From sequence record ON528740: a DNA stretch of 64,000 nt; one strand, 5' to 3'. Source of the stretch: Shigella phage ESh30. The notes under the pieces were generated by a model. The model did no database searches, was not told where the DNA came from, and saw nothing but the letters and a program-made list of their open reading frames with translations. Each line of letters begins with the position of its first letter. The first letter of the stretch is position 1. The position numbers and the translations under genes were made by a program. Shown here piece after piece: positions 1,591-45,594 of the stretch.

Positions 1591-2091
1591 ATGAAAATTT
1601 ATCGTGTTGAATCATCGTTTAGTATTCTTGATTATGAAGATGCTATAACAATACGTCGAAATCTTTGTGTTCAAATAACGCCGTACAGGAGTATAATAGA
1701 TTCATGGAGCGAAGAGTGGCTATTACACGTAGGTTATGACAGACCTAATTTTATGCATCATAGCGATAATAATAAAAGAATTCCTTTACCACACGAAGAT
1801 AAACTATTAGTTAAAAACGCTAATATAGTAATTAATACTAAGTTCAAGAAAGATTATGTTGGAGTAGAATATCATATTCCAGGATGGTTTATAGGTCTTT
1901 ATCATTTTGCTTTCGCTAGTGAATATGATATGATGAGATGGTTCACACGAGAAGAGCGGGAAGAATTATCTTCTAAAGGATTTTATCTCGCTGTATACGA
2001 AGTTCCTGAAGATGAAGTTATCATTGGTGGGCACCAAGTAATGTTCCGCAAATCGCATGCTGAACTCGTAGATTTTATTGAAATGAGATAA
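1591..2091 (+). CDS. hypothetical protein (~166 aa)
   Basis: ORF track 1552..2091 trimmed to ATG 1591 preceded by RBS aggataataaa. Confidence 0.5.
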   Translation: MKIYRVESSFSILDYEDAITIRRNLCVQITPYRSIIDSWSEEWLLHVGYDRPNFMHHSDNNKRIPLPHEDKLLVKNANIVINTKFKKDYVGVEYHIPGWFIGLYHFAFASEYDMMRWFTREEREELSSKGFYLAVYEVPEDEVIIGGHQVMFRKSHAELVDFIEMR

Positions 2092-2093
2092 TT

Positions 2094-2633
2094 ATGAAAT
2101 TTAATTATAATCCTGAATACATACCAAATCCGGTAGCTAAACTGATTGATTTTGATGTTGTAAGCACTTATGTATGCCCTGTTAAACCACTGGAAATTAA
2201 GGAACCTACTATGACTACCGCTATTGAAATCGGCAAAACCTACAAACTGGTTGAAACTGAAATTAAAACTACTGAACTAAATTTAGGTTATAAAGCATTG
2301 ACTAATGCTTTTGGTGAAGGCGAGTTTGTGGTTAAAAGCTTTTCAAAAAGTAACTGGTATGATAAGAATAAAGCTTACGTGATTCGAGTACGCCGTTTAG
2401 ATAATGATGAAGTAATTAAAACTATAGTTTTTGAAGCAGAGTTCATCCTCTTTCAAGAATGCGATCCTACTGACCTTCTAACTCATGCGGTAGCTATCAA
2501 GACTCCATTTATTTCGGTCTGTGGTTGGGTAACAGACCAATGGATTGAAGATGGTGTTGAACTTCTGAACGTTGTTCATGCAGGTGATTTTAGCGTAGTA
2601 CCTCGTAGTGCAGTGGTAGCTATTTTGAATTAA
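2094..2633 (+). CDS. hypothetical protein (179 aa), paralog of the next ORF
   Basis: ORF track; C-terminal motif ITDQWIEDGVELLNVV shared with ORF 2710..3207. Confidence 0.5.
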   Translation: MKFNYNPEYIPNPVAKLIDFDVVSTYVCPVKPLEIKEPTMTTAIEIGKTYKLVETEIKTTELNLGYKALTNAFGEGEFVVKSFSKSNWYDKNKAYVIRVRRLDNDEVIKTIVFEAEFILFQECDPTDLLTHAVAIKTPFISVCGWVTDQWIEDGVELLNVVHAGDFSVVPRSAVVAILN

Positions 2634-3574: not shown

Positions 3575-3587
3575 TGAGGAAATTGTA

Positions 3588-3803
3588 ATGAAACGTAAAA
3601 TTGTTCAGAATTGCACTAATGACGAATTTGAAGATGTATTATTTGATCCAAATCTTGTAGTAGTTCAAAAGGAACATACTAATAAGTTTACTCACTTGAC
3701 TTCGGTTTATGTGTACGAAAAAGTTGGTGATAAACAACCAATTTATGGTGTGTTTCGCGAAATTACTGAAGATGGTACAACTTATTGGAAGGAAACTTAT
3801 TAA
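3588..3803 (+). CDS. hypothetical protein (71 aa; size and position of T4 cef)
   Basis: ORF track; RBS gaggaaattgta. Confidence 0.45.
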
Positions 3804-4222: not shown

Positions 4223-4224
4223 TT

Positions 4225-4401
4225 ATGCCGCTTTATGATTATAAATGCCAATCCGAAGATTGCGGGCATGAATATGAAAAAATTAAAAAGATTTCTGAAC
4301 GAGAAAATGATGTTTGCCCTAAATGTCATCGTTTGTCTACTCGTCGGCCTTCTGCTCCTAAGCATGTGAATGGCGGTTTTTACGATTTACTTAAAGGGTG
4401 A
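4225..4401 (+). CDS. small zinc-ribbon protein (58 aa, two CxxC pairs)
   Basis: ORF below track threshold: MPLYDYKCQSEDCGHEYEKIKKISERENDVCPKCHRLSTRRPSAPKHVNGGFYDLLKG; fills a gap in dense coding. Confidence 0.5.
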   Translation: MPLYDYKCQSEDCGHEYEKIKKISERENDVCPKCHRLSTRRPSAPKHVNGGFYDLLKG

Positions 4402-4403
4402 TT

Positions 4404-4778
4404 ATGTTTAAAATCGGTAAGAAATATCGTGTTCGCGAAGGTGAAGAAAAGAAATATCTACTTTCTTCTAGTAATAGGAATGGTTCTATTAATGCCGTAA
4501 TATCTACAAGCGAATTTATCGTTGAAGATATGAAAGGTCATAATGTTACAATGATTAGTACAGCAACTAGCAGAAATGCTGGAAAAATTCTTCACAGTCT
4601 GCGGAGTGAAGTTCTAATTTATGATGAAGAATTTGACTTCTTCGAAGAAGTTCCCGAAGGTTTTGCTTTTGAATGCACTATCACTATGAAATCTGGTGAC
4701 CCTCTTTCTTTTACAGTTAAAGATGAAAGAAGCCGCTTGAGAGTTATTAGTCTTCTTCAAGCCATTAAATTTAAGTGA
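4404..4778 (+). CDS. hypothetical protein (~124 aa)
   Basis: ORF track 4398..4778 (GTG) trimmed to ATG 4404. Confidence 0.45.
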   Translation: MFKIGKKYRVREGEEKKYLLSSSNRNGSINAVISTSEFIVEDMKGHNVTMISTATSRNAGKILHSLRSEVLIYDEEFDFFEEVPEGFAFECTITMKSGDPLSFTVKDERSRLRVISLLQAIKFK

Positions 4779-4783
4779 AAATT

Positions 4784-5044
4784 ATGAAATATATTAATCG
4801 TTCTATCGCAGCATTAGTATTAGCAGTGTCTTTAGTAGGATGTACTGATGCTGATAATGCAACCAAAGTTTTGTCTTCAAGCGGTTTTACTAATATTGAA
4901 ATCACTGGATATAACTGGTTCGGTTGTTCTGAAAATGATTTCCAACATACTGGATTTCGTGCTATTGGACCTACTGGGCAGAAAGTAGAAGGAACAGTAT
5001 GTTCTGGGCTGTTCTTTAAGGATTCAACTATTCGTTTTAAATAA
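4784..5044 (+). CDS. predicted lipoprotein (signal peptide + lipobox LVGC)
   Basis: MKYINRSIAALVLAVSLVGCTD... N-terminus. Confidence 0.5.
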   Translation: MKYINRSIAALVLAVSLVGCTDADNATKVLSSSGFTNIEITGYNWFGCSENDFQHTGFRAIGPTGQKVEGTVCSGLFFKDSTIRFK

Positions 5045-5062
5045 AAGGCCTTCGGGCCTTTA
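5044..5062 (+). terminator. stem-loop aaggcc-UUCG-ggcctt, intrinsic-terminator-like
   Basis: GC stem with UUCG tetraloop followed by T-rich tract. Confidence 0.5.
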
Positions 5063-5113
5063 GCTTTATGATTGCCGGAGTATAATATTCCCGAAACCAA
5101 ACGAGGATAAGTG

Positions 5114-6931: not shown

Positions 6932-6960
6932 TTTACTTTACCACAAGGATGTGGTATAAT
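6931..6960 (+). promoter_or_regulatory. T4-type early promoter (GTTTAC ... GTGGTATAAT)
   Basis: gtttactttaccacaaggatgtggtataat immediately downstream of gene 39 stop. Confidence 0.6.
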
Positions 6961-6985
6961 TAATTGGGCAAATGAGGATATTGAA

Positions 6986-7189
6986 ATGAAATCATATAGA
7001 GTAAATTTAGAACTTTTTGATAAAGCAGTTCATCGAGAATATAGAATCATTCAACGCTTTTTCGATATGGGAGAAGCCGAAGAATTTAAAAACCGCTTTA
7101 AAGATATTAGAGATAAAATTCAATCTGACACCGCAACTAAAGACGAACTACTAGAAGTTGCTGAAGTTATTAAGCGTAATATGAATTAA
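6986..7189 (+). CDS. hypothetical protein (67 aa), in the rIIA.1 position
   Basis: ORF track; lies between 39 and rIIA. Confidence 0.5.
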
Positions 7190-7199
7190 TGAGGAAATT

Positions 7200-9377: not shown

Positions 9378-9388
9378 TAAGGAAAATT

Positions 9389-10327
9389 ATGTACAATATT
9401 AAATGCCTGACCAAAAACGAACAAGCTGAAATTGTTAAGCTGTATTCAAGTGGTAATTACACCCAACAGGAATTGGCTGATTGGCAAGGTGTATCGGTTG
9501 ACACAATCCGTCGTGTTTTGAAAAATGCTGAAGAAGCTAAACGCTCTAAAGTTACTATTAGCGGTGATATTACAGTTAAAGTTAATAGCGATGTAGTTAT
9601 TGCTCCAGTTGCTAAATCTGACATTATTTGGAATGCATCTAAAAAATTCATTTCAATTACTGTTGATGGTGTAACTTATAATGCAACACCTAATACTCAT
9701 TCAAACTTCCAGGAAATTCTTAATCTGCTTGTAGCGGATAAGCTGGAAGAAGCAGCACAAAAAATTAATGTTCGTCGCGCTGTTGAAAAATATATTTCCG
9801 GTGATGTTCGAATTGAAGGTGGAAGCTTATTCTATCAAAATATTGAATTGCGGTCTGGTTTGGTTGATCGTATTCTTGATTCGATGGAAAAAGGCGAAAA
9901 CTTTGAATTTTATTTTCCGTTCTTGGAAAATCTGCTGGAAAACCCAAGCCAGAAAGCGGTATCTCGACTTTTTGATTTCTTGGTAGCAAACGATATTGAA
10001 ATTACAGAAGATGGTTACTTCTATGCTTGGAAAGTAGTTCGCAGTAATTACTTTGACTGTCACTCAAATACCTTTGATAACAGTCCTGGTAAAGTAGTTA
10101 AAATGCCGCGTACTCGTGTGAATGACGATGATACACAAACTTGTTCTCGTGGTCTGCATGTGTGTTCTAAATCTTATATTCGTCACTTCGGTAGTTCAAC
10201 CAGCCGAGTTGTAAAAGTTAAAGTTCATCCTCGTGATGTAGTATCAATTCCGATTGATTACAACGACGCTAAAATGCGTACCTGCCAATACGAAGTAATT
10301 GAAGACGTTACTGAACAATTTAAATAA
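9389..10327 (+). CDS. rIIB: rIIB protein (312 aa)
   Basis: 312-aa ORF MYNIKCLTKNEQAEIVKLYSSGNYTQQELADWQGVSVDTIRRVL...; length and position match T4 rIIB. Confidence 0.93.
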   Translation: MYNIKCLTKNEQAEIVKLYSSGNYTQQELADWQGVSVDTIRRVLKNAEEAKRSKVTISGDITVKVNSDVVIAPVAKSDIIWNASKKFISITVDGVTYNATPNTHSNFQEILNLLVADKLEEAAQKINVRRAVEKYISGDVRIEGGSLFYQNIELRSGLVDRILDSMEKGENFEFYFPFLENLLENPSQKAVSRLFDFLVANDIEITEDGYFYAWKVVRSNYFDCHSNTFDNSPGKVVKMPRTRVNDDDTQTCSRGLHVCSKSYIRHFGSSTSRVVKVKVHPRDVVSIPIDYNDAKMRTCQYEVIEDVTEQFK

Positions 10328-10341
10328 GGGCTTCGGCCCTT
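10326..10341 (+). terminator. stem-loop aaggg-CUUCGG-ccctt after rIIB
   Basis: Inverted repeat; the identical hairpin recurs at 10554..10569. Confidence 0.4.
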
Positions 10342-10355
10342 AACTAAGGAAAATT

Positions 10356-10550
10356 ATGTTAGGTTATCAAGCACGAGTAAAAGAAGAATACGATCAATTA
10401 ATGCTCAAAATTAATGCACTGAGCAAATTTTTAGAAAGCACAAAGTTTCTAACGGTTAGTGCAGTTGAGCAAGAACTGCTGCTTTCACAGTTCATCTCAA
10501 TGAAATCTTATGCTGAGTGTCTAGAGAAAAGAATTGCACAATTCAAATAA
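10356..10550 (+). CDS. hypothetical protein (64 aa)
   Basis: ORF track; flanked by two copies of the gggcttcggccc hairpin. Confidence 0.45.
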   Translation: MLGYQARVKEEYDQLMLKINALSKFLESTKFLTVSAVEQELLLSQFISMKSYAECLEKRIAQFK

Positions 10551-10553
10551 AAT

Positions 10554-10576
10554 AAGGGCTTCGGCCCTTTTGTTTT
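10554..10576 (+). terminator. intrinsic terminator (gggcttcggccc + TTTTGTTTT)
   Basis: GC hairpin with UUCG loop followed by T-run. Confidence 0.6.
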
Positions 10577-10586
10577 AAGGTGAATT

Positions 10587-10916
10587 ATGATTTATTGTAT
10601 GAATATCGGTGATTCCGACATAAAAGAAATTTCTCTACATGGTAATCATCACGCTAATATTGTGTACTGTAATAAATTTGAGTTTGGACACGAAAAACTT
10701 GGGTTTCTTTATTGCAATGATGTTATAGTCATGGATAAAAAGGAACTCGATGAACTTGACCGTGAGTCTTTAGATGAAAATGACCGAATTTATTACGGCA
10801 CTCTTAAAGTATATAACGCTTATCTCAGCGGTAAAAAGGAAAGTCTAAATGCAGAAAACGAATCCGGGTTTACAGAGACTATTTCAGATTCCGACATTTA
10901 CCCTATCGAACAGTGA
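10587..10916 (+). CDS. hypothetical protein (109 aa)
   Basis: ORF track; overlaps start of denB. Confidence 0.4.
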   Translation: MIYCMNIGDSDIKEISLHGNHHANIVYCNKFEFGHEKLGFLYCNDVIVMDKKELDELDRESLDENDRIYYGTLKVYNAYLSGKKESLNAENESGFTETISDSDIYPIEQ

Positions 10917-11406
10917 TTTGACTAGTGAAATGAAGGTCAAAATTGCTGATACAGCAAGATACTCTTTAAAACAAAACCCGAACCAGGATAAAGCAGAAGT
11001 TATCGAAAGATGCCGTATCGCGGTGTACGCAGAGTTTTTTGTAGCAGATTGGCTAAGCGGGTATGTTAACAAAGGCCAAGAGGACGTTAATGACCCGTAT
11101 ACATACGCATGGGATGTATTGGCGCATCCAAGATACTGCGGGCTTCGTGTAGAAGTTAAGACACATCAAACTGACTCGCGTTGGATTTCGGTAACAACGG
11201 GATGCAGCGGAGAGTATCCATATGGTTCTGGAATAAATCTAGGGCCTATTCTAAATCATCAAGTCGCTGACTGTATAATTATATTCAACACTAAAGAAAT
11301 TCATCCAGGTGTCATCCAATACACTCCGAAGTTCATCGGTGATAGAGAAGACCTTCGTAAGGTTGTAAGAAAAAGCAACTACAACGGATGGTATCTTTCC
11401 ATTTAA
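10849..11406 (+). CDS. denB: endonuclease IV (dC-specific ssDNA endonuclease), 185 aa
   Basis: 185-aa ORF, same length as T4 denB, in the position between rIIB and ndd. Confidence 0.7.
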   Translation: MQKTNPGLQRLFQIPTFTLSNSDLTSEMKVKIADTARYSLKQNPNQDKAEVIERCRIAVYAEFFVADWLSGYVNKGQEDVNDPYTYAWDVLAHPRYCGLRVEVKTHQTDSRWISVTTGCSGEYPYGSGINLGPILNHQVADCIIIFNTKEIHPGVIQYTPKFIGDREDLRKVVRKSNYNGWYLSI

Positions 11407-11422
11407 AAATTTTCACAAAACG

Positions 11423-11469
11423 GTTTACATGCCACAAGGACCGTGGTACTATACAACTATCAACTACGG
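11423..11469 (+). promoter_or_regulatory. T4-type early promoter with -10 embedded in an imperfect hairpin
   Basis: cggtttacat...ccgtggtactatacaactatcaactacgg; 5' UTR nearly identical to the one at 11929..11975. Confidence 0.55.
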
Positions 11470-11480
11470 AGGAGCAGAAA

Positions 11481-11744
11481 ATGAAATTTAAATTTTATTA
11501 CGCTAAACATAAAATAACTGATGAGTTTGTGTCAGTTGAATATTCTAGCGATGATGAAGGTATGATTTATACTCGCTTAGGATTATCACATTGGGAGTCT
11601 GATCAACCTTATTTTTCAACTCCCGAAGAAATTACACGCTTAGTTAATGGTCATATGAATGACCACTGGAATGTAATTCTTTCAGATAGTCTTAAAGCGG
11701 CTATTAATAGTAATGAAATGAAAATCGCTGAGATTGAGCTATGA
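11481..11744 (+). CDS. hypothetical protein (~88 aa)
   Basis: ORF track 11388..11744 trimmed to ATG after RBS ggagga. Confidence 0.45.
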   Translation: MKFKFYYAKHKITDEFVSVEYSSDDEGMIYTRLGLSHWESDQPYFSTPEEITRLVNGHMNDHWNVILSDSLKAAINSNEMKIAEIEL

Positions 11745-11827
11745 GTTCATTATGGTGGTGTTTCGTTTGGTTAATTAGTATTCCATTAATTTGTTTAACA
11801 TTTACTTTTGTGATGAGGTTATTATGA
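11741..11827 (+). CDS. small hydrophobic peptide (28 aa)
   Basis: MSSLWWCFVWLISIPLICLTFTFVMRLL; ATGA overlap with neighbours; below ORF-track cutoff. Confidence 0.35.
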   Translation: MSSLWWCFVWLISIPLICLTFTFVMRLL

Positions 11828-11922
11828 AAATTTTGAATTCTGTACTTATTGCTTGTGCGTGGTGGGTTGCACAGGTTTCAGCAGTGGTGATTGGTATTCA
11901 CATTTATTACGAATATTTTTAA
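11824..11922 (+). CDS. small hydrophobic peptide (32 aa)
   Basis: MKILNSVLIACAWWVAQVSAVVIGIHIYYEYF; translationally coupled (TTATGA overlap). Confidence 0.35.
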   Translation: MKILNSVLIACAWWVAQVSAVVIGIHIYYEYF

Positions 11923-11928
11923 AAAGTT

Positions 11929-11975
11929 GTTTACAAGACTGTTCTTCCGTGGTACTATTACCCTATCAACTACGG
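11929..11975 (+). promoter_or_regulatory. T4-type early promoter with hairpin
   Basis: gtttacaagactgttcttccgtggtactattaccctatcaactacgg; 5' UTR ctatcaactacggaggaRcagaaaatg shared with promoter at 11423. Confidence 0.55.
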
Positions 11976-11986
11976 AGGAACAGAAA

Positions 11987-12100
11987 ATGAAAAAGATTGT
12001 TAAAGCTATATGGAATGTAGTTATAATACTAATAGTTTTGAGTATATTCCCAATCGTTTTAATGATTGATGTATTAAACGTTTACTTTGGATTTATGTGA
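11987..12100 (+). CDS. small hydrophobic membrane peptide (37 aa)
   Basis: MKKIVKAIWNVVIILIVLSIFPIVLMIDVLNVYFGFM. Confidence 0.4.
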   Translation: MKKIVKAIWNVVIILIVLSIFPIVLMIDVLNVYFGFM

Positions 12101-15092: not shown

Positions 15093-15141
15093 ACAACTAT
15101 CAAATAAATGAACTGAAACAAACAACCCGGAGATACAAAAA

Positions 15142-15369
15142 ATGAAATTTAAAATCGAAAACGAAATCGTTAAAGCTAAAAATGCTCTGACTGCTAACAA
15201 ACTGGTTGTAGATGGTATTGAATATGATATCTGTGGAGTTCGTGAAGAAAAACCTGGTGTTCTGACTTTCTTCACAATGATTTTTAAATTTAAAGGTGAC
15301 ACAGAATTCAAACAGTTTGATTTTGCCCATGAAGACGAAATCGAAGTTCGTAATCTGAACATTAAGTAA
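15142..15369 (+). CDS. hypothetical protein (75 aa), in the motA.1 position
   Basis: ORF track. Confidence 0.5.
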   Translation: MKFKIENEIVKAKNALTANKLVVDGIEYDICGVREEKPGVLTFFTMIFKFKGDTEFKQFDFAHEDEIEVRNLNIK

Positions 15370-15408
15370 GTACTTTATTAGAGCTCTTGAAAAAGAGTGC
15401 AAAAAAGT

Positions 15409-15437
15409 GTTTACTTCTGCTTTAAACATGATACTAT
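15409..15437 (+). promoter_or_regulatory. T4-type early promoter upstream of motA
   Basis: gtttacttctgctttaaacatgatactat; 5' UTR ctatcaaataaatgaactgaaac shared with promoter at 15063. Confidence 0.55.
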
Positions 15438-17931: not shown

Positions 17932-18204
17932 ATGAATAAAAACATTGATACAGTTCGTGAAATTATTACTGTTGCATCTATTTTGATTAAATTTTCCAGA
18001 GAAGATATTGTTGAGAATCGTGCTAATTTTATTGCATTTCTTAATGAGATTGGAGTAACGCATGAAGGTAGAAAATTAAATCAGAATTCATTCCGTAAAA
18101 TTGTTTCTGAATTAACTCAAGAAGATAAGAAAACCCTCATCGACGAATTCAACGAGGGTTTTGAGGGTGTATATCGATATCTAGAGATGTATACGAACAA
18201 ATAA
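17932..18204 (+). CDS. asiA: anti-sigma-70 factor AsiA (90 aa)
   Basis: MNKNIDTVREIITVASILIKFSREDIVENRANFIAFLNEIGVTHEGRKLNQNSFRKIVSELTQEDKKTLIDEFNEGFEGVYRYLEMYTNK recognised as T4 AsiA. Confidence 0.92.
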   Translation: MNKNIDTVREIITVASILIKFSREDIVENRANFIAFLNEIGVTHEGRKLNQNSFRKIVSELTQEDKKTLIDEFNEGFEGVYRYLEMYTNK

Positions 18205-18861
18205 TTATTTAGCCCTTCCTAATATTCTGGCCGCCTGAGCACATATTGATTCAAGGCGGTCATTACTTATATGATCATTTCTATACCAGTACATGGTTAT
18301 CGTTCCAGCATAGATATTATCCAAATTAAAATATGGACAACTGTACATGTAGTTTATTTCGGGAGTAGGCTTTTTAGTTGGTAAAAAAGCAAATTTTGAG
18401 TCAGAATAATAATGACGTCCATTTAAATGAACTGTATATTCATCCATAGTTTTATCAACAGGATATCCTCCAAGTGATTTTTCACTTATTGTTGAAGGTA
18501 ATTTTCCTTCATATGCTATAATATCAACAAAATAGTTTAAGTTTTTAGGGCGGAAAGAATACACCGCACTAAAGTCTGCCTCAGATGATATATGAACTAT
18601 CTGGAGTTGTTCCAGGGCGACAGATTCAAAGCGTGCATTTCTTTCCTTTTCAATAATTTCACTGTATGTTTCATACTTTGATTGCTTATAGTACTCAAAG
18701 AAACTATCTCCCCTATACCAAACAATCGCCATCATAAATAAAAGAATTACGACAGCTACCCGGGAAGCAAGAACTTTCCCGGTAGCGTTATCTTTGAACA
18801 AGCGATCTAGAACACCAAACAGAATATCAGAGGGCGAAAATGATATTCTAGGTGCTGCCAT
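18205..18861 (-). CDS. t: holin T (218 aa)
   Basis: MAAPRISFSPSDILFGVLDRLFKDNATGKVLASRVAVVILLFMMAIVWYRGDSFFEYY...; single TM segment + large periplasmic domain; convergent with asiA with zero spacer. Confidence 0.92.
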   Translation of the reverse strand: MAAPRISFSPSDILFGVLDRLFKDNATGKVLASRVAVVILLFMMAIVWYRGDSFFEYYKQSKYETYSEIIEKERNARFESVALEQLQIVHISSEADFSAVYSFRPKNLNYFVDIIAYEGKLPSTISEKSLGGYPVDKTMDEYTVHLNGRHYYSDSKFAFLPTKKPTPEINYMYSCPYFNLDNIYAGTITMYWYRNDHISNDRLESICAQAARILGRAK

Positions 18862-18892
18862 AGACCCTCCTTTTAAGGATATTTATTCAAAA

Positions 18893-19693
18893 TTATACCC
18901 TTGGACCATATATTACTCCAACATTTTGCCATGTTGGAGCTGATCCTATAACAGCATATCCGGCAGCGCCACCAGCTCCAACTTTTAGAACTTTACCGCC
19001 ATCATACCAGGCATTTTGTCCATTTGCGCCAGCATCACCACCCTGGCCAGAGTGAGCATTACCATAATTATAACCACCTCCTGGGCCATCATAAGAAGCT
19101 GCGCCGCCGGAATAACCTCCGCCTCCTCCTGGGCCAAATGGTCTTCCTCCACCACCACTAATATCTTGCCAATTTGCACCAGAGTGAGGACGATAAGCGA
19201 TACCACCTCCACCTCCACCTCCACCACAAATTACTCCACCGTTATTAATTCTTAATCGTCCACCGATGTCATTTTGAATACAATGACCACCTTGTTGACC
19301 ATTACCATCTCCGCCGGAATGAGTCCATCCACCCTGTCCACCTCTACCCCACATATGGACGCCGCCACCAATATTCAACTGAACATATTCATTAGGTGTA
19401 TCTCCGTACATGAAGAATAAAGGAACGTCTCTAGAATATGATACCAAATTTCCGGTAATATTAAACACTATAGGTGCACTACCTGCCTCAAAACATCTAT
19501 CTCGGAACCATTGACCATTGAAGTTATGGTCTGCTCCAAGTGTATGAATAATTTCTCGTGAGCGACCTGCAAATTGACTCATCCAGCAAGGAACACCCAA
19601 TCTTAATTGACCAGCCGCTTGACTCATCCATCGTTGCCCTGTTTCATTTGCGGCTGAACTTCCAATCCAACCAGGAACACCAACTACTGCCAT
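18893..19693 (-). CDS. 38: long-tail-fibre tip adhesin gp38, T2-type (glycine-rich motifs separating variable segments), ~266 aa
   Basis: Start taken at [13 protein letters not shown] (ORF track extends to 19762); poly-Gly runs GGGGGGGG / GGGG / GGGGG typical of T2-family gp38 adhesins. Confidence 0.8.
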
Positions 19694-19704
19694 AATTATC
19701 TCCA

Positions 19705-19723
19705 AAGGGGGCGTTGCCCCCTT
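19705..19723 (-). promoter_or_regulatory. GC hairpin (agggggc-gtt-gccccct) in the 37-38 intergenic spacer
   Basis: Inverted repeat between gp37 stop (19728) and gp38 RBS. Confidence 0.4.
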
Positions 19724-19727
19724 GTTG

Positions 19728-22700
19728 TTAGAATTTAAAGTATTTACCAATTTTGCGAGCAATTTTAGTGAAGAAAGGCGTTTTCAATTCTTTAATTTCT
19801 TCACTCATTTCCTGAATGGCCTTAATTAAAAGAGCATTCACAGCAGAGTTAGAAATTGTCAGAACTTCGTCTGGTTTATCAAGGTTGCCAATTTTCGAAA
19901 TATTAATCGCTTCTGGTAATATTTCTTGTAAATCCTGTGCGATAATGCCAATCTCATGACCGATAATTTCACGGTCCTTAAGAGATTTAACTTTATCGTA
20001 AGTTTTAACTTTCAGTTTACCGATTAAATCGGTTGCATTTCCTATATAATCTTCGATGTTTTCTTTGAGGCGACGGTCTGATCGAATATAAACATCGTTA
20101 AAGTTTCCGTTACCAGTGGCATGAAATTCTCCACTTGCATTGAATTGATAATTAGCATCCTGAACATGGAGAACCGCTGACGCAGTATTATTACTATTAC
20201 CGGGCATATGAACGTCCAGAGCAGCGATGTAGTTACGCCCCCAATCAACCGCTTTCCAAATAGCATGAGCACTATCAACGCTTTGTTGACAGTCAAGCAA
20301 CAAACCAGCAGGGCGGTCTCTCCAATTCGCATAAGCACCACCAGAAACTTCACCGCGAATAAGCCCTTGATCTCCGGCATAAGGAACACGCTCTCCCGTT
20401 TTAATCATTGCACCCCGGAAGTGATGACTAAATGAACCCCCATAATTATTTCGTATATGTAAAATACCATCATCGGTCGCCCAAATAACAGCCTTTTCTG
20501 TTTCGCTATCATCTCTAAACCAGATATGGCGTGCACCAGTTGAGTTTTTGATGGTTATTCCGTTAGGTCCATGCACGGTCAAAGCACCAGATACATCAAA
20601 TAAAACGGTGTTATCTGTTCTACGTTCCGTATAGAAGTGATAACCTTTGGAATCACCGATTTCCATCACTGCCGCGCGACCAACTTCTGAATTTCCCCAA
20701 TTATTGATATGGAATCGTTCAGAGCTATTATTCATCTGATTTAGGTGTAATGTACCATCAGTGAATGTTTCGCCAAAGAAACGAGTTTTAATTGCACCAG
20801 TCGCTAAAGTACGTTCAGTGGAAAAATGAACGCCTTTGCTGTCTTCTAACTGAATAATGTTATCGCGCGCATTATTACTATCACCCCAATGGTTAAATTT
20901 AAAATAATCTCGTGATCCTAAACGTCCGGCATCAAAAGTCATCAAGCCTTTTATATTAATATCACCACCAAAAAATGCGGTGAGAGAATCGCGTTTTAAA
21001 ATTAAAACGTTAGCACCACTAGCACCACCCAAAATAACATCGCCAGTTTTTAATTGATAGCGGAAAGGTCTATTTGTATTAAAGTTTCCATCTTGATCAT
21101 TTTCGTCGGTGGAAAGAATATAAAGACTCTCTCCATCATTACGGAAAATTGTACCAAATTTTCCGCCATACATACGGAATGCATTAGATGAGCGGAATTT
21201 AACTTCTGTTTTAAATGTGGTAGTGTTATTAAGGTTAACAGTAGAGTTAAAATTGGTAGGAGCACCGAAGTTAACAGCACCATTAAAATCTTGTTGAGCT
21301 GTCCATGTGTGGCGACCATCTTCAAGAACAACACGGCGGACTGTGCAAGTTCTATTTCCAGAATTACCGAACACACGAACGACAAAATAACGGTAGTTTG
21401 TCTGGGATACAGTACCGCGCCAAACCTGAACAGTACGCCCTGTGCTAGTGTGTTCGCTAGGACCAACGGAAAACATAACCAGGTTTCCGTCAATCGTCCC
21501 CCAATCCATATTTGCTGGCATGTTCTTGACTTTATTCAGCGGTACGCTAAACATACTACCAGGAACAAAATCAAATGTTTGCCAATCTAACTCTGTTAAT
21601 TGAGATTTAACACCACCCATACCCAAAGTAATTGGCAGAGAATAAGATGTATATACTTCGTTCCATGCGCCCCACGCATCACCAGTATATGCACGCTCAA
21701 AAATACGTCCGCGAGTAGTTGCACCCGTTCCGGCAGTAGTAAATTTTTGGAAAATAGCACCACCAGAAGCACGCTGTTTAACTTCCAGCAAACCAACAAT
21801 AACAGGCGGCAAACCTTCACCTGTAGGGCAGTTAATAACGGCATCAGTGCCTAAAATATTATATAAACCAGGAGTTTTAAAATCATTCAGGTTTCCGTCA
21901 TAGAAAGTCGCTGGTGTGCCATGACCAACCTGCTTCCATTCCTCCCACTTAGGCGCACTAGCATCCCATGCAGCAGCGAGACAACGAGTATATACAACAC
22001 CAAATCTGGTTGTATATCTTTGTGTACGAGAATAGTTTCCACCTTCATATACTTCCAAAAGACCTTGAGCTGACGACCCCTCTTCTGGGAAATTTCTGTC
22101 AAAGGTAGCAATGGAACTTGAACTATTTCGCCACAAACCAAAGTGTTCAGCGCCTCCTAGATCATTAAGATCAATTGTTGTTGACAGTGGACGAGTACCG
22201 GATTGAATATTGCGCCACGGACCCCATGGACCATCGACGCCATTCCATTTAGCAGATAAGGAACGAATATAGACGTTACCAGATCTTACAGTATAACGCT
22301 GAGTGCCAGCAAATTGGCCGGCCACAAATACTTCTAGTACACCTACGGCATTTTCTTCTGGGAATTTATTTGCTGGTTGCGCATTTGTTGAAGTAGATTT
22401 CGACCAAACACCAAGATATTCTTCAATGGGCCCATACGTATCTAAATTAGCATCAGTAGGTAATTCGCCATTATTTTTTATAAATGTTGTGCTATTGACA
22501 TTTATGTCAGATGGAGTTAAGGTAATGTCCTTTGACCCATCAAAAGATATACCATTAATTTTCCTAGGTGTTTGCAATTTAGTAGCTGTGCTAGAATTTC
22601 CAATTAAAGTTCCAGTTATATTTTCTGTAACCTCTAAAGACCCATTTATAGTTCCTCCATATTTTAAACCTAATTCTATAACACTACCTGAGTCATCTTT

Positions 22701-22820
22701 TGTGAAAATTGTTTTATCTTTTAAGTTTATAGCCAATTCACCTTCGGCTAATACTGAAGCAGCAGGACGTTGACCTGCAGTTTTGCTTCTTTTAAATTGT
22801 ATTTGTTTTAAAGTAGCCAT
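19728..22820 (-). CDS. 37: long tail fibre distal subunit gp37 (1030 aa) with C-terminal intramolecular-chaperone-like domain
   Basis: 1030-aa ORF downstream of gp36; C-terminus [14 protein letters not shown]...[19 protein letters not shown] resembles the self-cleaving chaperone domain of phage fibres. Confidence 0.88.
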
Positions 22821-22828
22821 AAGTCCTC

Positions 22829-23479
22829 TTAATAATAGCCGAAATCTTGAACAGAATCCTTCATTACGATTTGGTCAAATCGTGGAACGTGTGAAGGTTG
22901 AGATGCAGGATTCTGTGAAAAAAGGTTTGGCGCAGTTAAATTTCCTGTCATAGTGTCTCCAGAGCGTAATACCCTAGAGTTTGCATTTGCTGTAACAGTA
23001 TTTATTGCTCCATCAACATAATCTTTGCGAGTAACATCAGATGCTGCGGAAGGAGTAGATGTAACAGTTACAGATGGAGCCGTTACAGCTTTGGTAAATG
23101 TTGTCAAACCTTCTGGCGTAATAGTAATTTGTCCAGTAGTGATTTCACTACCTGCTGGTCTAAAACTAATACCGCCAGAAGAGCCACCAACTACAAGAGT
23201 ATTACCAGTGCCGCCACCAGAACGAATTCGGATAGGGGTTTCATTATTACTTAATTGAAGATAACTATTTACCCCGTAATTAATAGTAATTGGACCGGCG
23301 TAAGTACCACCATTAGCTTTAGAAACGAAATCGTTATCAGCTGCCTGCGGTTTATTATATTCTGAATATATTTTAAATGATTTGTAGAGTACATCGTCAC
23401 CGGCTGAATTCAATGGAAAATTTCCTTGATGCCAAATGACAGATCCACCCACAGTTGAACCTACTTTTAAATCAGCCAT
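22829..23479 (-). CDS. 36: long tail fibre distal connector gp36 (216 aa)
   Basis: Length and position between 35 and 37. Confidence 0.82.
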
Positions 23480-23502
23480 TATATGCCCCTTTATTTTAAT
23501 AT

Positions 23503-23510
23503 TATTTATA
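23503..23510 (-). promoter_or_regulatory. T4 late promoter TATAAATA (on - strand) upstream of gene 36
   Basis: tatttata on + strand = TATAAATA on - strand, 24 nt upstream of gp36 start codon. Confidence 0.65.
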
Positions 23511-23517
23511 AAGAAAA

Positions 23518-23540
23518 AGGGAACCCGAAGGCTCCCTCAG
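23518..23540 (-). terminator. hairpin gggagcc-UUCG-ggttccc followed by T-run (- strand) after gene 35
   Basis: Inverted repeat with one G-U pair and TTTTT on the minus strand. Confidence 0.5.
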
Positions 23541-23541
23541 T

Positions 23542-24657
23542 TTAAACTTCTCTAAATTCCTGTCCAAACACTTTGCCAGTTTTAGAAGAGGCTTGTGTAG
23601 GAAGTACCATTATATCTGGAGGTGAAGCCGATTCACAGACATAATTAACGCGAATACCGTTGACGCCAAATTCGGCAGGTTTTGAAATGCCGCCATTTCT
23701 TGATACTTCAGAAAAACTTAAATTTCTCATGCCGCCTTGACCTGCTTGAGCAGTTCTTTGTGCATATATCGTAAATCCTACGGCGTTTTCTGGAACAACT
23801 ACATAGTCTTCTTTTAATTCCCAAGACCCAGCTTGCCCAGTAAACTCAGCTTGGGTCGAAGAAATATATCCATTTGATGCATCATAAAAACGAATAGATA
23901 TATTTGTAGTTCCAAGATCAAGTAAATCAGAATCAGCATATAGTTGTGCTTTAAGATAAAGAACATCACCAGGAATTAAATTGTAGTCAGAAAGTTTACT
24001 TATAGCAGCTGAAGTTGGCAATCGCGCAATTTCATTATTAGTTCCTCCAACCGCAGACATAAATTGCTCAACGCTTTCGTATGTTCTTTTAGGAAATCCT
24101 GTAGCTCCGACGTCTTCTAAACTATCAAATACAACATCTAAAATAGTTTGATAATCATCTGTGCTTTTTCTATTACTTAGTTTAACATGCTCTAATGCAA
24201 TAGCTCTTTTAGAAGAAGTATAAAAAGCAGCATATGACACGTCAAATCTTGACAATACTGAATCTGATGGAAAAACTGAAGTTCCTGCTCCCCTTAACCA
24301 AGATACCACTTCAGGAGGAAAATTAACCTTTCCGCTAGTTAATATAGCAACAAGTCTATTGTTTGACAAAGAATTCATGAAACTGACAAAAGCGGCAGAT
24401 GTTGTATTGTTTGAAGCAGAAAAAGCATATGACTTGCTATCAACTAATGCTCCCGTAGAAGGGTCAAAAACTCTTAAATGAAGACCTGCACTAAATGTTT
24501 GATTTCCAACGGGACTATCCTGAAATTTAACATATGGCCCCGCAGTAGAAAGCGGGCAAGAACCCGCTATGCTTATTTTATATCTTACTGAATTGCTTTC
24601 CGATAAAAATGGCGTTTGGACATATCCTTGTCCAAACTCTGCCATAAATTTTTCCAT
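23542..24657 (-). CDS. 35: long tail fibre hinge connector gp35 (371 aa)
   Basis: Length and position between 34 and 36. Confidence 0.82.
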   Translation of the reverse strand: MEKFMAEFGQGYVQTPFLSESNSVRYKISIAGSCPLSTAGPYVKFQDSPVGNQTFSAGLHLRVFDPSTGALVDSKSYAFSASNNTTSAAFVSFMNSLSNNRLVAILTSGKVNFPPEVVSWLRGAGTSVFPSDSVLSRFDVSYAAFYTSSKRAIALEHVKLSNRKSTDDYQTILDVVFDSLEDVGATGFPKRTYESVEQFMSAVGGTNNEIARLPTSAAISKLSDYNLIPGDVLYLKAQLYADSDLLDLGTTNISIRFYDASNGYISSTQAEFTGQAGSWELKEDYVVVPENAVGFTIYAQRTAQAGQGGMRNLSFSEVSRNGGISKPAEFGVNGIRVNYVCESASPPDIMVLPTQASSKTGKVFGQEFREV

Positions 24658-34418: not shown

Positions 34419-34437
34419 AATAACGCGTGGCGGAAAT

Positions 34438-34785
34438 ATGAATTTTAATTATTACCCTATTCTATTAGAAAAAGACACGAAACAGCCAAAGTGGCAGGGT
34501 CCTCAGTTTATTAAAGGTGTCTATCAATTAGTAGTTCCTAAAGACAAGATTTATAGCAGTTGTTTCACTGAATCCGCTTGCAGTATTTTCGGTAATAGTT
34601 CTCCGTATTGGAATTTTGACATAAAGCTGGATAGAAATATCGATATTTGGTTGAAAGCTATGGATATTGGTAATATCATGTTTGATGAGAATAATTATCA
34701 TATTATTGGTCGCTTTTCCAAACGTGGTAAAGAATTATATTTCACACCTGAAATTGAGAGAAAATTTGATGCTAAACCGTATTGA
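34438..34785 (+). CDS. hypothetical protein (115 aa) carried on a cassette inserted between frd and td
   Basis: ORF track; own RBS ggcggaaat; no recognisable motif; not expected at this position from T4. Confidence 0.5.
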   Translation: MNFNYYPILLEKDTKQPKWQGPQFIKGVYQLVVPKDKIYSSCFTESACSIFGNSSPYWNFDIKLDRNIDIWLKAMDIGNIMFDENNYHIIGRFSKRGKELYFTPEIERKFDAKPY

Positions 34786-34830
34786 TTATTTAGCTTCATA
34801 AAATGTATTATAATTTATATAAGGTACTAA

Positions 34831-36011
34831 ATGAAACAATACCAAGATTTAATTAAAGACATTTTTGAAAATGGCTATGAAACCGATGACCGAACAGGCA
34901 CAGGAACAATTGCTTTATTCGGTACTAAATTACGCTGGGATTTAACTAAAGGTTTTCCTGCGGTAACAACTAAGAAGCTCGCCTGGAAAGCTTGCATTGC
35001 TGAGCTACTTTGGTTTTTATCAGGAAGCACAAATGTCAATGATTTACGATTAATTCAGCATGATTCGTTAATCCAAGGCAAAACAGTTTGGGATGAAAAT
35101 TACGAAAATCAGGCAAAAGATTTAGGATACCATAGTGGTGAACTTGGCCCAATTTATGGAAAACAGTGGCGCGATTTTGGCGGTGTAGACCAAATTATAG
35201 AAGTTATTGATCGTATTAAAAAACTACCAAGTGATAGGCGTCAAATTGTTTCTGCGTGGAATCCAGCTGAACTTAAATATATGGCATTACCACCTTGTCA
35301 TATGTTCTATCAGTTTAATGTGCGTAATGGTTATCTTGATTTACAATGGTATCAACGCAGTGTAGATGTTTTCTTGGGTTAATTGAGGCCTAGGTATAAG
35401 GTGACTTATACTTGTAATCTATCTAAACGGGGGACCTCTCTAGTAGACAATCCCGTGCTAAATTGTAGGACTACCCTTTAATAATTTCATCAGGATTAGT
35501 TACTTACCGTGTAAAATCTGATAAATGGAATTGGTTCTACATAAATGCCTAACGACTATCCCTTTGGGGAGTAGGGTCAAGTGACTCGAAACGATAGACA
35601 ACTTGCTTTAACAAGTTGAAGATATAGTCTGATCTGCATGGTGACATGCAGCTGGATATAATTCCGGGGTAAGATTAACGACCTTATCTGAACATAATGC
35701 TTCCATTTAATATTGCATCATATGCTACGTTAGTTCATATTGTAGCTAAGATGTGTAATCTTATTCCGGGAGATTTGATATTTTCCGGTGGTAATACTCA
35801 TATCTATATGAATCACGTAGAACAATGTAAAGAAATTTTGCGTCGTGAACCTAAAGAGCTTTGTGAACTGGTAATAGGCGGATTGCCTTATAAATTCCGC
35901 TATCTTTCTACTAAAGAACAATTGGAATACATTCTTAAACTCAGGCCTAAAGATTTCGTTCTCAAAGATTATCAGTCCCACGGCGTCTTGAAAGGAAAAA
36001 TGGCGGTGTAA
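34831..36011 (+). CDS. td: thymidylate synthase, interrupted by a group I intron: join(34831..35379, 35700..36011), 286 aa
   Basis: Exon 1 MKQYQDLIKDIFENGYETDDRTGTG...QRSVDVFLG and exon 2 LPFNIASYATLVHIVAKMCNLIPGD...KGKMAV join in frame to give a 286-aa thymidylate synthase. Confidence 0.92.
35380..35699 (+). ncRNA. self-splicing group I intron in td (320 nt), lacking an intact homing-endonuclease ORF
   Basis: Begins UAAUUGAGGCC right after exon-terminal U, ends ...CUGAACAUAAUG (terminal G); conserved core segments of the T4 td intron recognisable. Confidence 0.88.
35484..35552 (+). pseudogene. 3'-terminal remnant of homing endonuclease I-TevI (last ~22 codons)
   Basis: Translation IISSGLVTYRVKSDKWNWFYINA* matches the C-terminus of T4 I-TevI; no start codon or GIY-YIG domain upstream. 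Confidence 0.75.
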
Positions 36012-38884: not shown

Positions 38885-40063
38885 ATGAGCACAGTTTTTA
38901 ATACAAACCCAGTTGATGTTTTAAAAGAACCTATGTTTTTTGGTTCAGGTCTTGGTATTGCGCGTTATGATATTCAACGGCATCGAGTATTTGAAGAACT
39001 TACAGAGAAGTCCTTATCATTTTTCTGGCGCCCGGAAGAAGTAAACTTAATGATGGATGCTGCACAGTTTAATAAGCTTCCTCAGTATCAGCAAAATATT
39101 TTTACTAACAACTTGAAGTATCAATCACTTTTGGATAGCATTCAGGGTCGTGCGCCGTCTGCTGTACTTATGTCATTAATTTCAAACCCAAGCCTTGATA
39201 CGTGGGTTGCTACATGGACTTTTAGTGAAACTATTCACAGTCGTTCATATACACATATCATGCGAAATCTTTATACTGATCCATCGAAGGTATTTGATGA
39301 GATTGTATTAGATGAAGCTATTATGAAACGTGCTGAATCCATTGGACGTTATTATGATGATGTTCTGATTAAAACTCGTGAATGGGAAAATGCTAAAGAA
39401 TTTGTAGAACTATCTAAAGAATCTCCTGATGCCGACTTTCGTTTAAACCGAGCTATTAAACAAGAAGCCGAAGCTAAACGTGCTTTAATGAAATCTCTTT
39501 ACCTCTGTTTGCACGTTATTAATGCCTTAGAAGCTATTCGTTTTTATGTATCTTTCGCATGCACTTTTAACTTCCATAAGAACATGGAAATCATGGAAGG
39601 TAATGCCAAGATTATGAAGTTCATTGCGCGTGATGAGCAGCTTCATCTTAAAGGCACCCAATATATTATTCGTCAACTTCAACTTGGCACTGATGGCGAT
39701 GAATGGGTTAAAATTGCTCAAGAGTGTGAACAAGAAGCAGTTGATATTTTCATGGAAGTTAACCGCCAAGAAAAAGATTGGGCAGTTCATTTATTTAAAG
39801 ATGGAGATGTTCCTGGATTAAATACAAATAGCATGTGGAGCTTTATTGATTACTTAACTGTATCTCGTATGAAGCAGTGTGGTCTTCCATGCCCAATTAC
39901 CGATGCTCCGGTTAAACATCCATATCCTTGGATTCGTGAATATCTTAATTCTGATAATGTTCAATCTGCGCCACAAGAAGTAGAATTGTCATCTTACCTT
40001 GTTGCACAGATTGATAATGATGTTGATGATAAAGTTATGATGAGTTTTAAAAAATACTTTTAA
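38885..40063 (+). CDS. nrdB: ribonucleoside-diphosphate reductase small subunit (392 aa), uninterrupted
   Basis: Di-iron/tyrosyl-radical R2 protein; single continuous ORF with no intron. Confidence 0.92.
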   Translation: MSTVFNTNPVDVLKEPMFFGSGLGIARYDIQRHRVFEELTEKSLSFFWRPEEVNLMMDAAQFNKLPQYQQNIFTNNLKYQSLLDSIQGRAPSAVLMSLISNPSLDTWVATWTFSETIHSRSYTHIMRNLYTDPSKVFDEIVLDEAIMKRAESIGRYYDDVLIKTREWENAKEFVELSKESPDADFRLNRAIKQEAEAKRALMKSLYLCLHVINALEAIRFYVSFACTFNFHKNMEIMEGNAKIMKFIARDEQLHLKGTQYIIRQLQLGTDGDEWVKIAQECEQEAVDIFMEVNRQEKDWAVHLFKDGDVPGLNTNSMWSFIDYLTVSRMKQCGLPCPITDAPVKHPYPWIREYLNSDNVQSAPQEVELSSYLVAQIDNDVDDKVMMSFKKYF

Positions 40064-43110: not shown

Positions 43111-44335
<1,225 letters not shown>

Positions 44336-45066: not shown

Positions 45067-45594
45067 ATGAGCGAATGGTTTGAAGAAGATAAGGTTTATC
45101 GCTTTAAAACTGGGTATAAAGATATTTTTAATGAAACTTGCGGGGCTAATAAACGAATCGCCCAGTTTATTGGGGAAAATTCATTTAAAGTAAAAATTGA
45201 CCCTGCAAAGAATGTTATTAGCATTAAACGTGAAATTGATGATTGTTGGTATAAAGCTGTTGATGTAATGGGTGAATCCTATAAAGTTAGCCCGTTATTT
45301 TCAATTGCTTATATGTTAGAATATTCTTTTTTCGAAGAAGTTCAAAAAGATGATTCTGTAAGTAAATTTGAAATTAAAACTGATAAAGAAATTAAGTGGA
45401 AAGTAGTAGGTATTACTGGTTGTATGTTTTATATCTATGCTCAAACTGATACGAAGGAAGAAGCTAAAAAGAAAGCTCTAGAATATCTTGAAGAGTATGA
45501 AGAAGGCCCGGTAATGATTACTCAAGATGCTGAATTAGTTTCTGTCAAATTAGTTAAAAACGTTGAAAGTAAGGAGCTGGGATCAACATGCTAA
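45067..45594 (+). CDS. hypothetical protein (175 aa)
   Basis: ORF track. Confidence 0.5.
   Translation: MSEWFEEDKVYRFKTGYKDIFNETCGANKRIAQFIGENSFKVKIDPAKNVISIKREIDDCWYKAVDVMGESYKVSPLFSIAYMLEYSFFEEVQKDDSVSKFEIKTDKEIKWKVVGITGCMFYIYAQTDTKEEAKKKALEYLEEYEEGPVMITQDAELVSVKLVKNVESKELGSTC

Follow-up and report, generated by a model that had tools for sequence, protein, structure and literature searches.

Genes 37 and 38 of Shigella phage ESh30 very probably encode a canonical T2/T6-type Tequatrovirus long-tail-fibre tip, in which gp37 would lose a C-terminal intramolecular chaperone (IMC) by cleavage, gp38 would dock onto the fibre and OmpA would serve as the receptor. Both genes lie on the minus strand of the window, a stretch of 64 000 nucleotides from sequence record ON528740. 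This reading is founded on the observed homology, motifs, gene order, adhesin identity and mosaicism, from which we infer the cleavage, a 3:1 assembly and the receptor. The arrangement is an ordinary, already well-described one among T-even phages. A preceding sequence-only reading had drawn attention to it, and all the sequence features described there are found at their positions.

Gene 38 (18893..19693, minus strand) encodes the receptor-recognising adhesin gp38 (266 aa, 27.0 kDa), assigned by Pfam, PHROG and PDB matches and identical to GenBank entry URY14585.1 (Shigella phage ESh30). The start codon is the ATG at 19693 (MAVVGVPGW...), with GGAG upstream; it replaces a TTG at 19762, given as the start in the list of open reading frames, and yields the N-terminus that is conserved across all relatives. 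The Pfam family GP38 (PF05268) matches residues 47-266 over positions 1-218 of its 218-position profile (E = 3.4e-68; 230 bits, cutoff 25), and Gp38_N (PF21721) covers residues 1-42 with E = 1.5e-19. The profile of PHROG 2056, 'tail fiber protein; host specificity', is matched from position 1 to 267 of 267 (E = 3e-112). Matches in the PDB are 9v85 (E = 1e-71), which is a GFP-gp38 fusion, and S16 gp38 [6f45_D, E = 7e-48, residues 5-263]. There is no similarity between ESh30 gp38 and T4 gp38 in sequence, no overlap in Pfam or family assignment, and the lengths differ (266 versus 183 aa). The proposal of a T2-type glycine-rich adhesin of about 266 aa, as opposed to the T4 assembly chaperone, is therefore borne out by the length from ATG 19693 and by the GP38 and Gp38_N matches; a full-length alignment to T4 gp38 free of glycine motifs did not occur. 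The T2-type label holds for the type and fails for the finer subtype, since residues 1-108 are 90-99% identical to T6, CM8 and RB32 and 49% identical to T2; gp38 and gp37 would more precisely be classed as T6/RB32 subtype, not T2 proper. The GenBank product name of gp38, 'tail protein and peptidase', is likely to be misleading, the S74 peptidase-type domain being in gp37 instead. Two alternative-frame open reading frames in the glycine-rich region (18985..19227, minus strand; 19016..19255, plus strand) were discarded as by-products of the GGN repeat.

The attachment domain at the gp38 N-terminus (residues 1-42; 19568..19693, minus strand), delimited by the Gp38_N match, carries Trp9, Trp22 and Trp37. 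In an alignment of 18 sequences, S16 and T2 included, W9 and W22 never vary and W37 hardly does. Such tryptophans have been described as 'prongs' inserted in the gp37 tip (PMC7917993), and the domain is predicted to dock onto the tip of the gp37 trimer. The C-terminal specificity domain (residues 109-266; 18896..19369, minus strand) is recognised by its motif pattern and its glycine content of 37% (58 of 158 residues, compared with 70 of 266, or 26%, in the whole protein). Glycine-rich motifs (GRMs) alternate here with hypervariable segments (HVSs) and are followed by a conserved end of 15 residues, an organisation reported for gp38-type adhesins (Trojet 2011). Glycine runs are located at residues 109-111, 157-164, 180-183, 189-193 and 205-207, and the invariant columns of the 18-sequence alignment include GRGG, G158-G163 and G180-GGGRP-G187, with PxW...G.I at the conserved end; these runs and the pattern of invariant and variable columns agree with the earlier description of poly-glycine runs separating variable segments. 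The AlphaFold model of gp38, obtained from 14 sequences (86-98% identical), has a mean pLDDT of 35.5 and a pTM of 0.39, too low for use; a polyglycine-II sandwich fold is implied by the homology to S16 gp38 (6F45_D), not by this model.

Gene 37 (19728..22820, minus strand), an open reading frame identical in its product to GenBank URY14586.1 (ESh30), encodes the distal long-tail-fibre subunit as a precursor of 1030 aa and 113.5 kDa. The protein is alone in its 90% cluster; it is 85% identical to its RB32 counterpart and 73% to that of fFiEco06, and resembles T4 gp37 at residues 1-64 and 544-598 only. Residues 914-1030 (19731..20081, minus strand; 117 residues, 13.3 kDa) are assigned by Pfam as an IMC of the Peptidase_S74 type (PF13884), with residues 914-971 matching profile positions 1-56 of 58 (E = 1.1e-13; 51.7 bits, cutoff 22). 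The C-terminus also matches S16 gp37 (6f45_A, E = 1.4e-7) and, at E = 0.027, the MYRF autoprocessing domain. The two sequence segments of 14 and 19 residues from which a self-cleaving chaperone-like domain had been proposed are present within these 117 residues, and the profile match concurs with that proposal. The segment S914-D-R-R-L-K919 aligns to SDRRIK of S16 and SDIRLK of T2 (motif S-D-x-R-x-K). It is directly preceded by DVYIR (residues 909-913; 20082..20096, minus strand), predicted to form the final strand of gp37 after maturation and to be the docking face for gp38; DVYIR is kept in ESh30, RB32, fFiEco06, EV240, CM8, T6 and fPS-2, whose sequences upstream of it diverge, and T2 has NVYIR. 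According to PMC7917993, the S16 cleavage site is DLNVS^SDRRIKK, loss of the IMC (the last 113 residues) exposes the gp38 docking surface, and the predicted site in the fPS phages is DVYIR^SDGRLKI. Proteolytic processing of T2 gp37 was described in 1986 (Drexler 1986, as given in the reference list of PMC3157838). For ESh30 gp37, autocatalytic cleavage before Ser914 is predicted.

In the assembly that we propose, gp37 would be synthesised as a 1030-aa precursor, and its last 117 residues, the S74-type IMC, would drive the fibre tip to trimerise and fold. The IMC would cut itself off between Arg913 and Ser914 through a Ser-Lys dyad (S914, K919); such a dyad reportedly has a role in the endosialidase IMC. 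Mature gp37 would then comprise 913 aa (about 100 kDa), with DVYIR as its terminal strand. A single gp38 monomer may attach to the exposed tip of the gp37 trimer via its N-terminal domain (Trp9, Trp22 and Trp37), and the glycine-rich motifs of its C-terminal domain would provide a polyglycine-II scaffold displaying receptor-binding hypervariable loops. The pairing of gp38 with an IMC-bearing gp37, which the sequence-only reading had pointed out, is no special combination; it is canonical and indeed obligatory in T2-type fibres, where the cleavage exposes the docking face (work on S16 summarised in PMC7917993).

In a blastn comparison with T4, 88% of the window is matched, at identities of 85-98% and in a single order that is colinear and inverted. 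The only large unmatched stretch, 18887..22665, takes in gene 38 together with almost the whole of gene 37. The T4-colinear backbone and the differing module proposed earlier are thus real, but T4 is a poor yardstick for calling the host-range module mosaic: in the phage collection 805 records have a relative of the gp38 adhesin and 297 have a T4-type gp38, and the T2-type adhesin is reported to be the predominant form (Trojet 2011). To judge from the identity profile, the real local mosaicism is a patch of about 1 kb in the gp37 tip and IMC. This recombinant patch (19800..20800, minus strand; boundaries approximate, at a resolution of 200-nt windows) takes in the distal tip of gp37 and most of the IMC. 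Between gene t and gene 38, both included, fFiEco06 is 96-100% identical at the nucleotide level; the figure falls to 32-74% over 19805..20804, and from 20805 to about 21800 it is 96-100% once more. Nucleotide identity to RB32 over about 19805..20400 is 56-81%. The best matches of 19728..20330 in the phage collection are YUEEL01, TOPO13 and HMD-9 (96.7%) and SG1 (96.3%), and they differ from the phages that best match gene 38. The cleavage prediction is motif-based because the patch is at best 96.7% identical to other sequences in the phage collection and no relative of the entire gp37 reaches 90%. The ESh30 tip is a further case of the modular exchange that T-even phages are known to show in the host-range cassette of genes 37 and 38.

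Overall, gp38 is 99.6% identical to that of fFiEco06, with G179S as the single difference, and 98.5% identical to that of RB32, from which it differs at four residues (A15V, N174K and Y230H in addition to residue 179). Over the specificity domain (residues 109-266) the identity is 99.4% to fFiEco06 and 98.1% to RB32, and 43-54% to the EV240, CM8, T6, T2, fPS-2 and S16 types. RB32 is reported to require OmpA, with LPS composition affecting sensitivity, and chimeras of RB5 that received a 400-bp HVS segment of RB32 gained RB32 specificity (PMC3157838). Closely related gp38 proteins are described as sharing a receptor (PMC12032242; bioRxiv 2026.04.02.716166). The most likely primary receptor of ESh30 gp38 is accordingly predicted to be OmpA, with the LPS core needed to some extent, because RB32 and fFiEco06 have essentially the same hypervariable loops; the alignment to reference adhesins, T2 and T6 included, that had been suggested for receptor assignment leads to OmpA through the RB32 type (98.1% versus 43-54% for the others). 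The gp38 proteins of Ox2, K3 and M1 are not among the matches listed; the only link to Ox2 is the GenBank note on RB32 gp38, 'similar to Ox2, T6, M1'. ESh30, which belongs to Tequatrovirus and was isolated on Shigella, had its genome sequenced with a view to cocktail design, and its report holds no passage on tail fibres and no receptor assignment (PMC9686686). A prediction of OmpA, with the LPS core, may aid in choosing cocktail partners with different receptors, although its practical value is modest.

The same architecture might be directed at a receptor other than OmpA (for example OmpC, OmpX or the LPS core alone), through substitutions in the adhesin or differences in the Shigella surface, which we regard as unlikely. 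Ser179 (codon AGT, 19157..19159, minus strand), directly before the glycine-rich motif GGGGRPFG, speaks for this idea, in that every other gp38 compared (17 close relatives and the 18-sequence alignment) has Gly at this position and one loop substitution in gp38 can switch the receptor, as RB68 Q206L does from OmpF to OmpW (bioRxiv 2026.04.02.716166). The additional LPS dependence of RB32 (PMC3157838) and the isolation of ESh30 on Shigella (PMC9686686) point in the same direction. However, a specificity domain that is 98-99% identical to those of RB32 and fFiEco06 argues for their receptor, adhesin phylogeny being a good receptor predictor (PMC12032242; bioRxiv 2026.04.02.716166), and residue 179 borders a glycine-rich scaffold motif, with nothing that places it at the tip of a loop. 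It is more doubtful still that G179S is an adaptive Shigella host-range change away from plain OmpA, and that the combination of the gp37 patch, for which no relative exceeds about 97% nucleotide identity, with an fFiEco06-type gp38 itself affects host range; either effect, if true, would add little to a system that is already well mapped and would bring no new mechanism.

The GGN codon repeats had been called slippage-prone, and they could be imagined as a slippage-driven device for diversity or phase variation, host range changing with the gain or loss of glycines. The longest poly-glycine run of gp38 (residues 157-164; 19202..19225, minus strand) is encoded by GGT GGA GGT GGA GGT GGA GGT GGT, which Tandem Repeats Finder reports as CCACCT x3.8 with 100% matches (19203..19225), a perfect (GGTGGA)x3.8 in the coding sense, and the length of this run ranges from 6 to 9 glycines between gp38 types. 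Inside the RB32/fFiEco06 type, however, the length is constant: each of the 17 sequences in the 90% cluster has eight glycines, or A/C plus seven or eight, at a constant total length, RB32 and fFiEco06 use the very same codons, and the sole length change in the cluster falls in a hypervariable segment, outside the glycine runs. T6 deprived of GRM2, GRM3 or GRM4 is reported to give no viable phage, and the GRMs are described as recombination sites (PMC3157838). A slip of 3 or 6 nt would moreover preserve the frame, and so would make no on/off switch. The repeat is thus confirmed and the slippage is not, and a device of this kind is highly improbable. Least credible of all is that the C-terminal domain of gp37 is kept in the virion, in a structural or receptor-binding role, and that gp38 is a mere assembly factor as in T4. 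The GenBank product name of gp38 would fit such an arrangement, but gp38 is unlike T4 gp38, conservation extends to the Ser-Lys motif and DVYIR, as in S16, for which both cleavage and docking have been solved (PMC7917993), and the S74-type domain, which forms the C-terminal end of at least 25 PHROG fibre profiles, is always at the extreme C-terminus.

Read as a canonical T2/T6-type tip, the locus can be set beside several known systems. The OmpA-binding type of gp38 found in RB32/RB33 and fFiEco06 shares the length of 266 aa, the glycine-rich motifs, the hypervariable segments and the position between genes 37 and t; ESh30 differs in having Ser179 for Gly and a partner gp37 with another distal tip and IMC allele. 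The gp37-gp38 tip of S16 (PDB 6F45) has the same two-protein design and an S74-type IMC, with ...S^SDRRIKK at the cleavage site where ESh30 has ...R^SDRRLKE, and its gp38 is alike in the conserved tryptophans near the N-terminus, the polyglycine motifs and the motif W-x-NVG-x-I at the C-terminus. Nevertheless, the gp38 identity is 43-46%, its gp37 tip bears no relation to that of ESh30 upstream of the cleavage site, and S16 belongs to another genus, Gelderlandvirus. The receptor of S16 is OmpC. T2 and T6 share with ESh30 the GRM/HVS organisation; their gp38 is a virion adhesin and the C-terminal part of their gp37 is lost by proteolysis (Drexler 1986), as is predicted for ESh30. T2 differs in its gp38 (44-49% identical), in a gp37 of 1341 aa and in its receptor, FadL (PMC3157838); T6 has an N-terminal part of gp38 that is 90% identical, whereas its Tsx-type specificity domain is 54% identical (receptor from PMC3157838). 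T4 has in common the locus 36-37-38-t, the colinear genome and a hairpin before gene 38, but its gp38, an assembly factor of 183 aa, is unrelated, and its gp37 lacks the S74 domain. In T4 it is gp37 itself that bears the receptor-binding tip. The endosialidase-type IMCs and the MYRF domain likewise follow a trimeric fibre at the C-terminus, begin with S-D-x-R-x-K and have a G-I-I-A-Q-D/E core; the passenger in ESh30 is a T-even fibre tip, not a sialidase or tailspike, and release would here also create the docking site for gp38.

The gene order 36-37-38-t is the same as in RB32, fFiEco06, T2, T6 and S16. Gene t, encoding the holin (18205..18861, minus strand; Pfam Phage_holin_T, E = 1.9e-117), forms the right-hand boundary of the module, and similarity to T4 starts again at 18886. 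A scan of 18100..23600 for sigma-70 promoters and terminators gave sites no more numerous than in shuffled sequence. Between the stop codon of gene 37 and the Shine-Dalgarno sequence of gene 38 (GGAG, 19700..19703) there is a G+C-rich hairpin, AGGGGGC-AAC-GCCCCCU (19706..19722, minus strand; MFE -14.2 kcal/mol, z-score -3.1). A hairpin with differing stems and loops occupies the same site in all 22 related loci, and T4 also has one, so the hairpin was rejected as a special feature of ESh30; a similar UUCG hairpin is found upstream of gene 36.

Genes 36 (22829..23479), 37 (19728..22820, 1030 aa) and 38 (18893..19693, 266 aa) and the holin gene t (18205..18861) all lie on the minus strand. An ORF listing places the start of gene 38 at a TTG (19762), but the gene in fact begins at the ATG at 19693, which follows GGAG and opens an N-terminus conserved among all relatives compared; it gives 266 aa, the length put forward in the sequence-only reading. 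The product, gp38, is identical to GenBank URY14585.1 (Shigella phage ESh30) and matches the Pfam families Gp38_N (residues 1-42, E 1.5e-19) and GP38 (residues 47-266, profile covered in full, E 3.4e-68); PHROG 2056 ('tail fiber protein; host specificity') aligns with it along its full length (E 3e-112). Matching proteins of solved structure are a GFP-gp38 fusion (9v85, E 1e-71) and the adhesin of Salmonella phage S16 (6f45_D, E 7e-48, residues 5-263), whereas T4 gp38 (183 aa) is unrelated; the proposal of an adhesin rather than a T4-type chaperone is thus upheld. AlphaFold with a shallow alignment gave a pLDDT of 35.5, too low for a usable model, and the putative fold is assigned by homology to the S16 gp37-gp38 structure (6F45). 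Of all its residues 26% are glycine, rising to 37% within residues 109-266; glycine runs occupy residues 109-111, 157-164 (eight Gly), 180-183, 189-193 and 205-207. URY14585.1 and many relatives carry the product name 'tail protein and peptidase', probably a propagated mis-annotation since the S74 peptidase-type domain sits in gp37, not gp38.

The distal long-tail-fibre subunit gp37 is an exact match of URY14586.1 (Shigella phage ESh30), which, like URY14585.1, lies on a 170,189-bp contig. Its C-terminus had been read as a chaperone/autoproteolysis domain, and this is supported by a Pfam match to Peptidase_S74 ('chaperone of endosialidase'; residues 914-971, E 1.1e-13, scoring 51.7 where the cutoff is 22 bits and covering positions 1-56 of the 58 in the profile), by a match of the last 200 residues to S16 gp37 (6f45_A, E 1.4e-7) and by S914-D-R-R-L-K919, which opens the S74 domain directly after DVYIR. 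The same 200 residues weakly match the MYRF autoprocessing domain (E 0.027). PMC7917993 describes autocleavage of S16 gp37 at DLNVS^SDRRIKK, by which the last 113 residues are removed and the gp38 docking surface is exposed, and gives DVYIR^SDGRLKI as the predicted site in fPS phages; PMC3157838 cites Drexler 1986 for the processing of T2 gp37. The site predicted here by alignment is DVYIR^SDRRLKE, which would yield a mature gp37 of 913 aa (100.2 kDa) and a released chaperone of 117 aa (13.3 kDa). Across gp37 tip types, conservation is confined to the DVYIR strand and the final ~55 residues of this intramolecular chaperone. The pairing singled out by the sequence-only reading is therefore not a noteworthy combination: as cleavage of the S16 chaperone exposes the gp38 docking surface and T2 gp37 is processed, it is how fibres of this type have to be built. 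Gp34_trimer (Pfam), the trimerisation domain of the proximal fibre subunit, matches gp37 residues 522-587 (21060..21257, minus strand; E 8e-14). Residues 582-638 of T4 gp37 align here too; the Gp34_trimer match reflects repeat modules common to gp34 and gp37.

In blastn against T4 (three regions, spanning 1-12000 and 100000-168903), 88% of the window aligns, with 85-98% identity and in a single colinear, inverted order. The sole large gap, 18887..22665, comprises gene 38 and gene 37 minus its first ~50 codons; the gp37 protein resembles T4 gp37 in residues 1-64 and 544-598 only. A mosaic host-range module on a T4-colinear backbone is thus factually correct, but describing it so takes T4 as the norm. 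According to Trojet et al. (PMC3157838) the T2/T6-type adhesin predominates, and in the annotated phage collection, which lacks the ESh30 record, 805 records carry a gp38 related to this one, versus 297 for the T4 type. Compared with phage fFiEco06, identity is 96-100% across t and gene 38, 32-74% over 19805..20804 (gp37 tip and most of the chaperone) and again 96-100% from 20805 to about 21800. The closest relatives of the divergent patch are YUEEL01, TOPO13 and HMD-9 (96.7%) and SG1 (96.3%); whole gp37 is the sole member of its 90% cluster. This pattern is consistent with gp38 alleles and gp37 tips reassorting freely, as is known for this cassette.

ESh30, a Tequatrovirus, was sequenced in work on Shigella phage cocktails (PMC9686686); that paper contains neither a receptor assignment for it nor tail-fibre text. 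The best DNA matches of gene 38 in the collection are fFiEco06 (98.3%) and RB32 (97.2%), the proteins differing by G179S alone and by four residues respectively. When gp38 is divided at residue 108/109, its N-terminal portion shares 90-99% identity with T6, CM8, EV240, fPS-2 and RB32, regardless of receptor. The specificity domain shares 98.1% with RB32 and 99.4% with fFiEco06, but only 43-54% with EV240 (a different OmpA type), CM8 and T6 (Tsx), T2 (FadL), fPS-2 (OmpF/LPS) and S16. RB32 depends on OmpA and is also affected by LPS composition, and a 400-bp hypervariable segment from it confers its specificity on RB5 chimeras (PMC3157838); two later studies find the receptor predictable from gp38 phylogeny (PMC12032242; bioRxiv 2026.04.02.716166). 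The best prediction is therefore OmpA with LPS-core dependence. A caveat is Ser179 (AGT, 19157..19159, minus strand), directly before the GGGGRPFG motif: the residue is Gly in 17 close relatives and in a wider 18-sequence alignment, Ser being unique to the window, and one loop substitution in gp38 can switch receptor, as Q206L does in RB68 (bioRxiv 2026.04.02.716166). Ser179 arises by a single G-to-A change, which may be adaptive for host range, neutral or an error in sequencing.

The suggestion that the GGN repeats are slippage-prone fared less well. The repeat exists (codons GGT GGA GGT GGA GGT GGA GGT GGT for the eight-Gly run; a perfect 6-nt repeat ×3.8 at 19203..19225 by TRF), yet the codons of the run are identical in RB32 and fFiEco06 and its length is constant in 17 close relatives, among which the lone indel falls within a hypervariable segment. 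Between adhesin types the run varies from 6 to 9 Gly, so indels have occurred over long timescales, but there is no sign of ongoing slippage; a slip would keep the reading frame. Deleting glycine-rich motifs of T6 gp38 gave no viable phage (PMC3157838). Overall, the original observation is confirmed and its interpretation largely right, but what it describes is a textbook T2/T6-type tail-fibre tip from a phage already in GenBank; all that is left over is the unique G179S substitution and this phage's own gp37-tip allele.

The interval from the gene 37 stop codon to the Shine-Dalgarno sequence of gene 38 (19694..19727, minus strand) contains a stable G+C stem-loop, AGGGGGC-AAC-GCCCCCU (19706..19722; -14.2 kcal/mol, z -3.1). 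A hairpin occupies this position in 22/22 related loci, with varying stem and loop sequences (UUCG, UACG, AAAU, others), and also in T4; it resembles the well-known intergenic tetraloop hairpins of T-even phages. A second hairpin, with a UUCG loop and a T-run after it, GAGGGAGCC-TTCG-GGTTCCCTT TTTCTTT (23517..23538, minus strand), lies immediately upstream of gene 36 and was scored terminator-like by the scan. The T4 late-promoter consensus is TATAAATA; AATAAATA lies upstream of t (18862..18892, minus strand), where fPS-2 has an annotated late promoter at the matching position. No comparable motif precedes gene 38 in the window, unlike in fFiEco06, EV240 and CM8, where TATAA(A)T overlaps the gene 38 ribosome-binding region.

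Elsewhere, a group I intron of about 282 nt (35370..35651, plus strand; Rfam, 70.3 bits, full model) interrupts td, the thymidylate synthase gene. There the blastn map skips about 690 nt of T4, the position of the I-TevI homing-endonuclease ORF, and the intron appears to be ORF-less. At 39558..39563 the alignment skips about 600 nt (T4 139058 to 138455), the T4 site of the nrdB intron with I-TevIII, an intron that appears to be absent from this phage. Stretches without a blastn match to the compared T4 regions (2080..2520, 4407..4781, 15107..15428, 34424..34827, 43118..43430, 45070..45588 and other short ones) are 150-520 nt each in an otherwise colinear backbone, and are probably small accessory ORFs or indels. 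One such ORF encodes 75 aa (15142..15369); fFiEco06 has the same ORF between motA.1 and motA.
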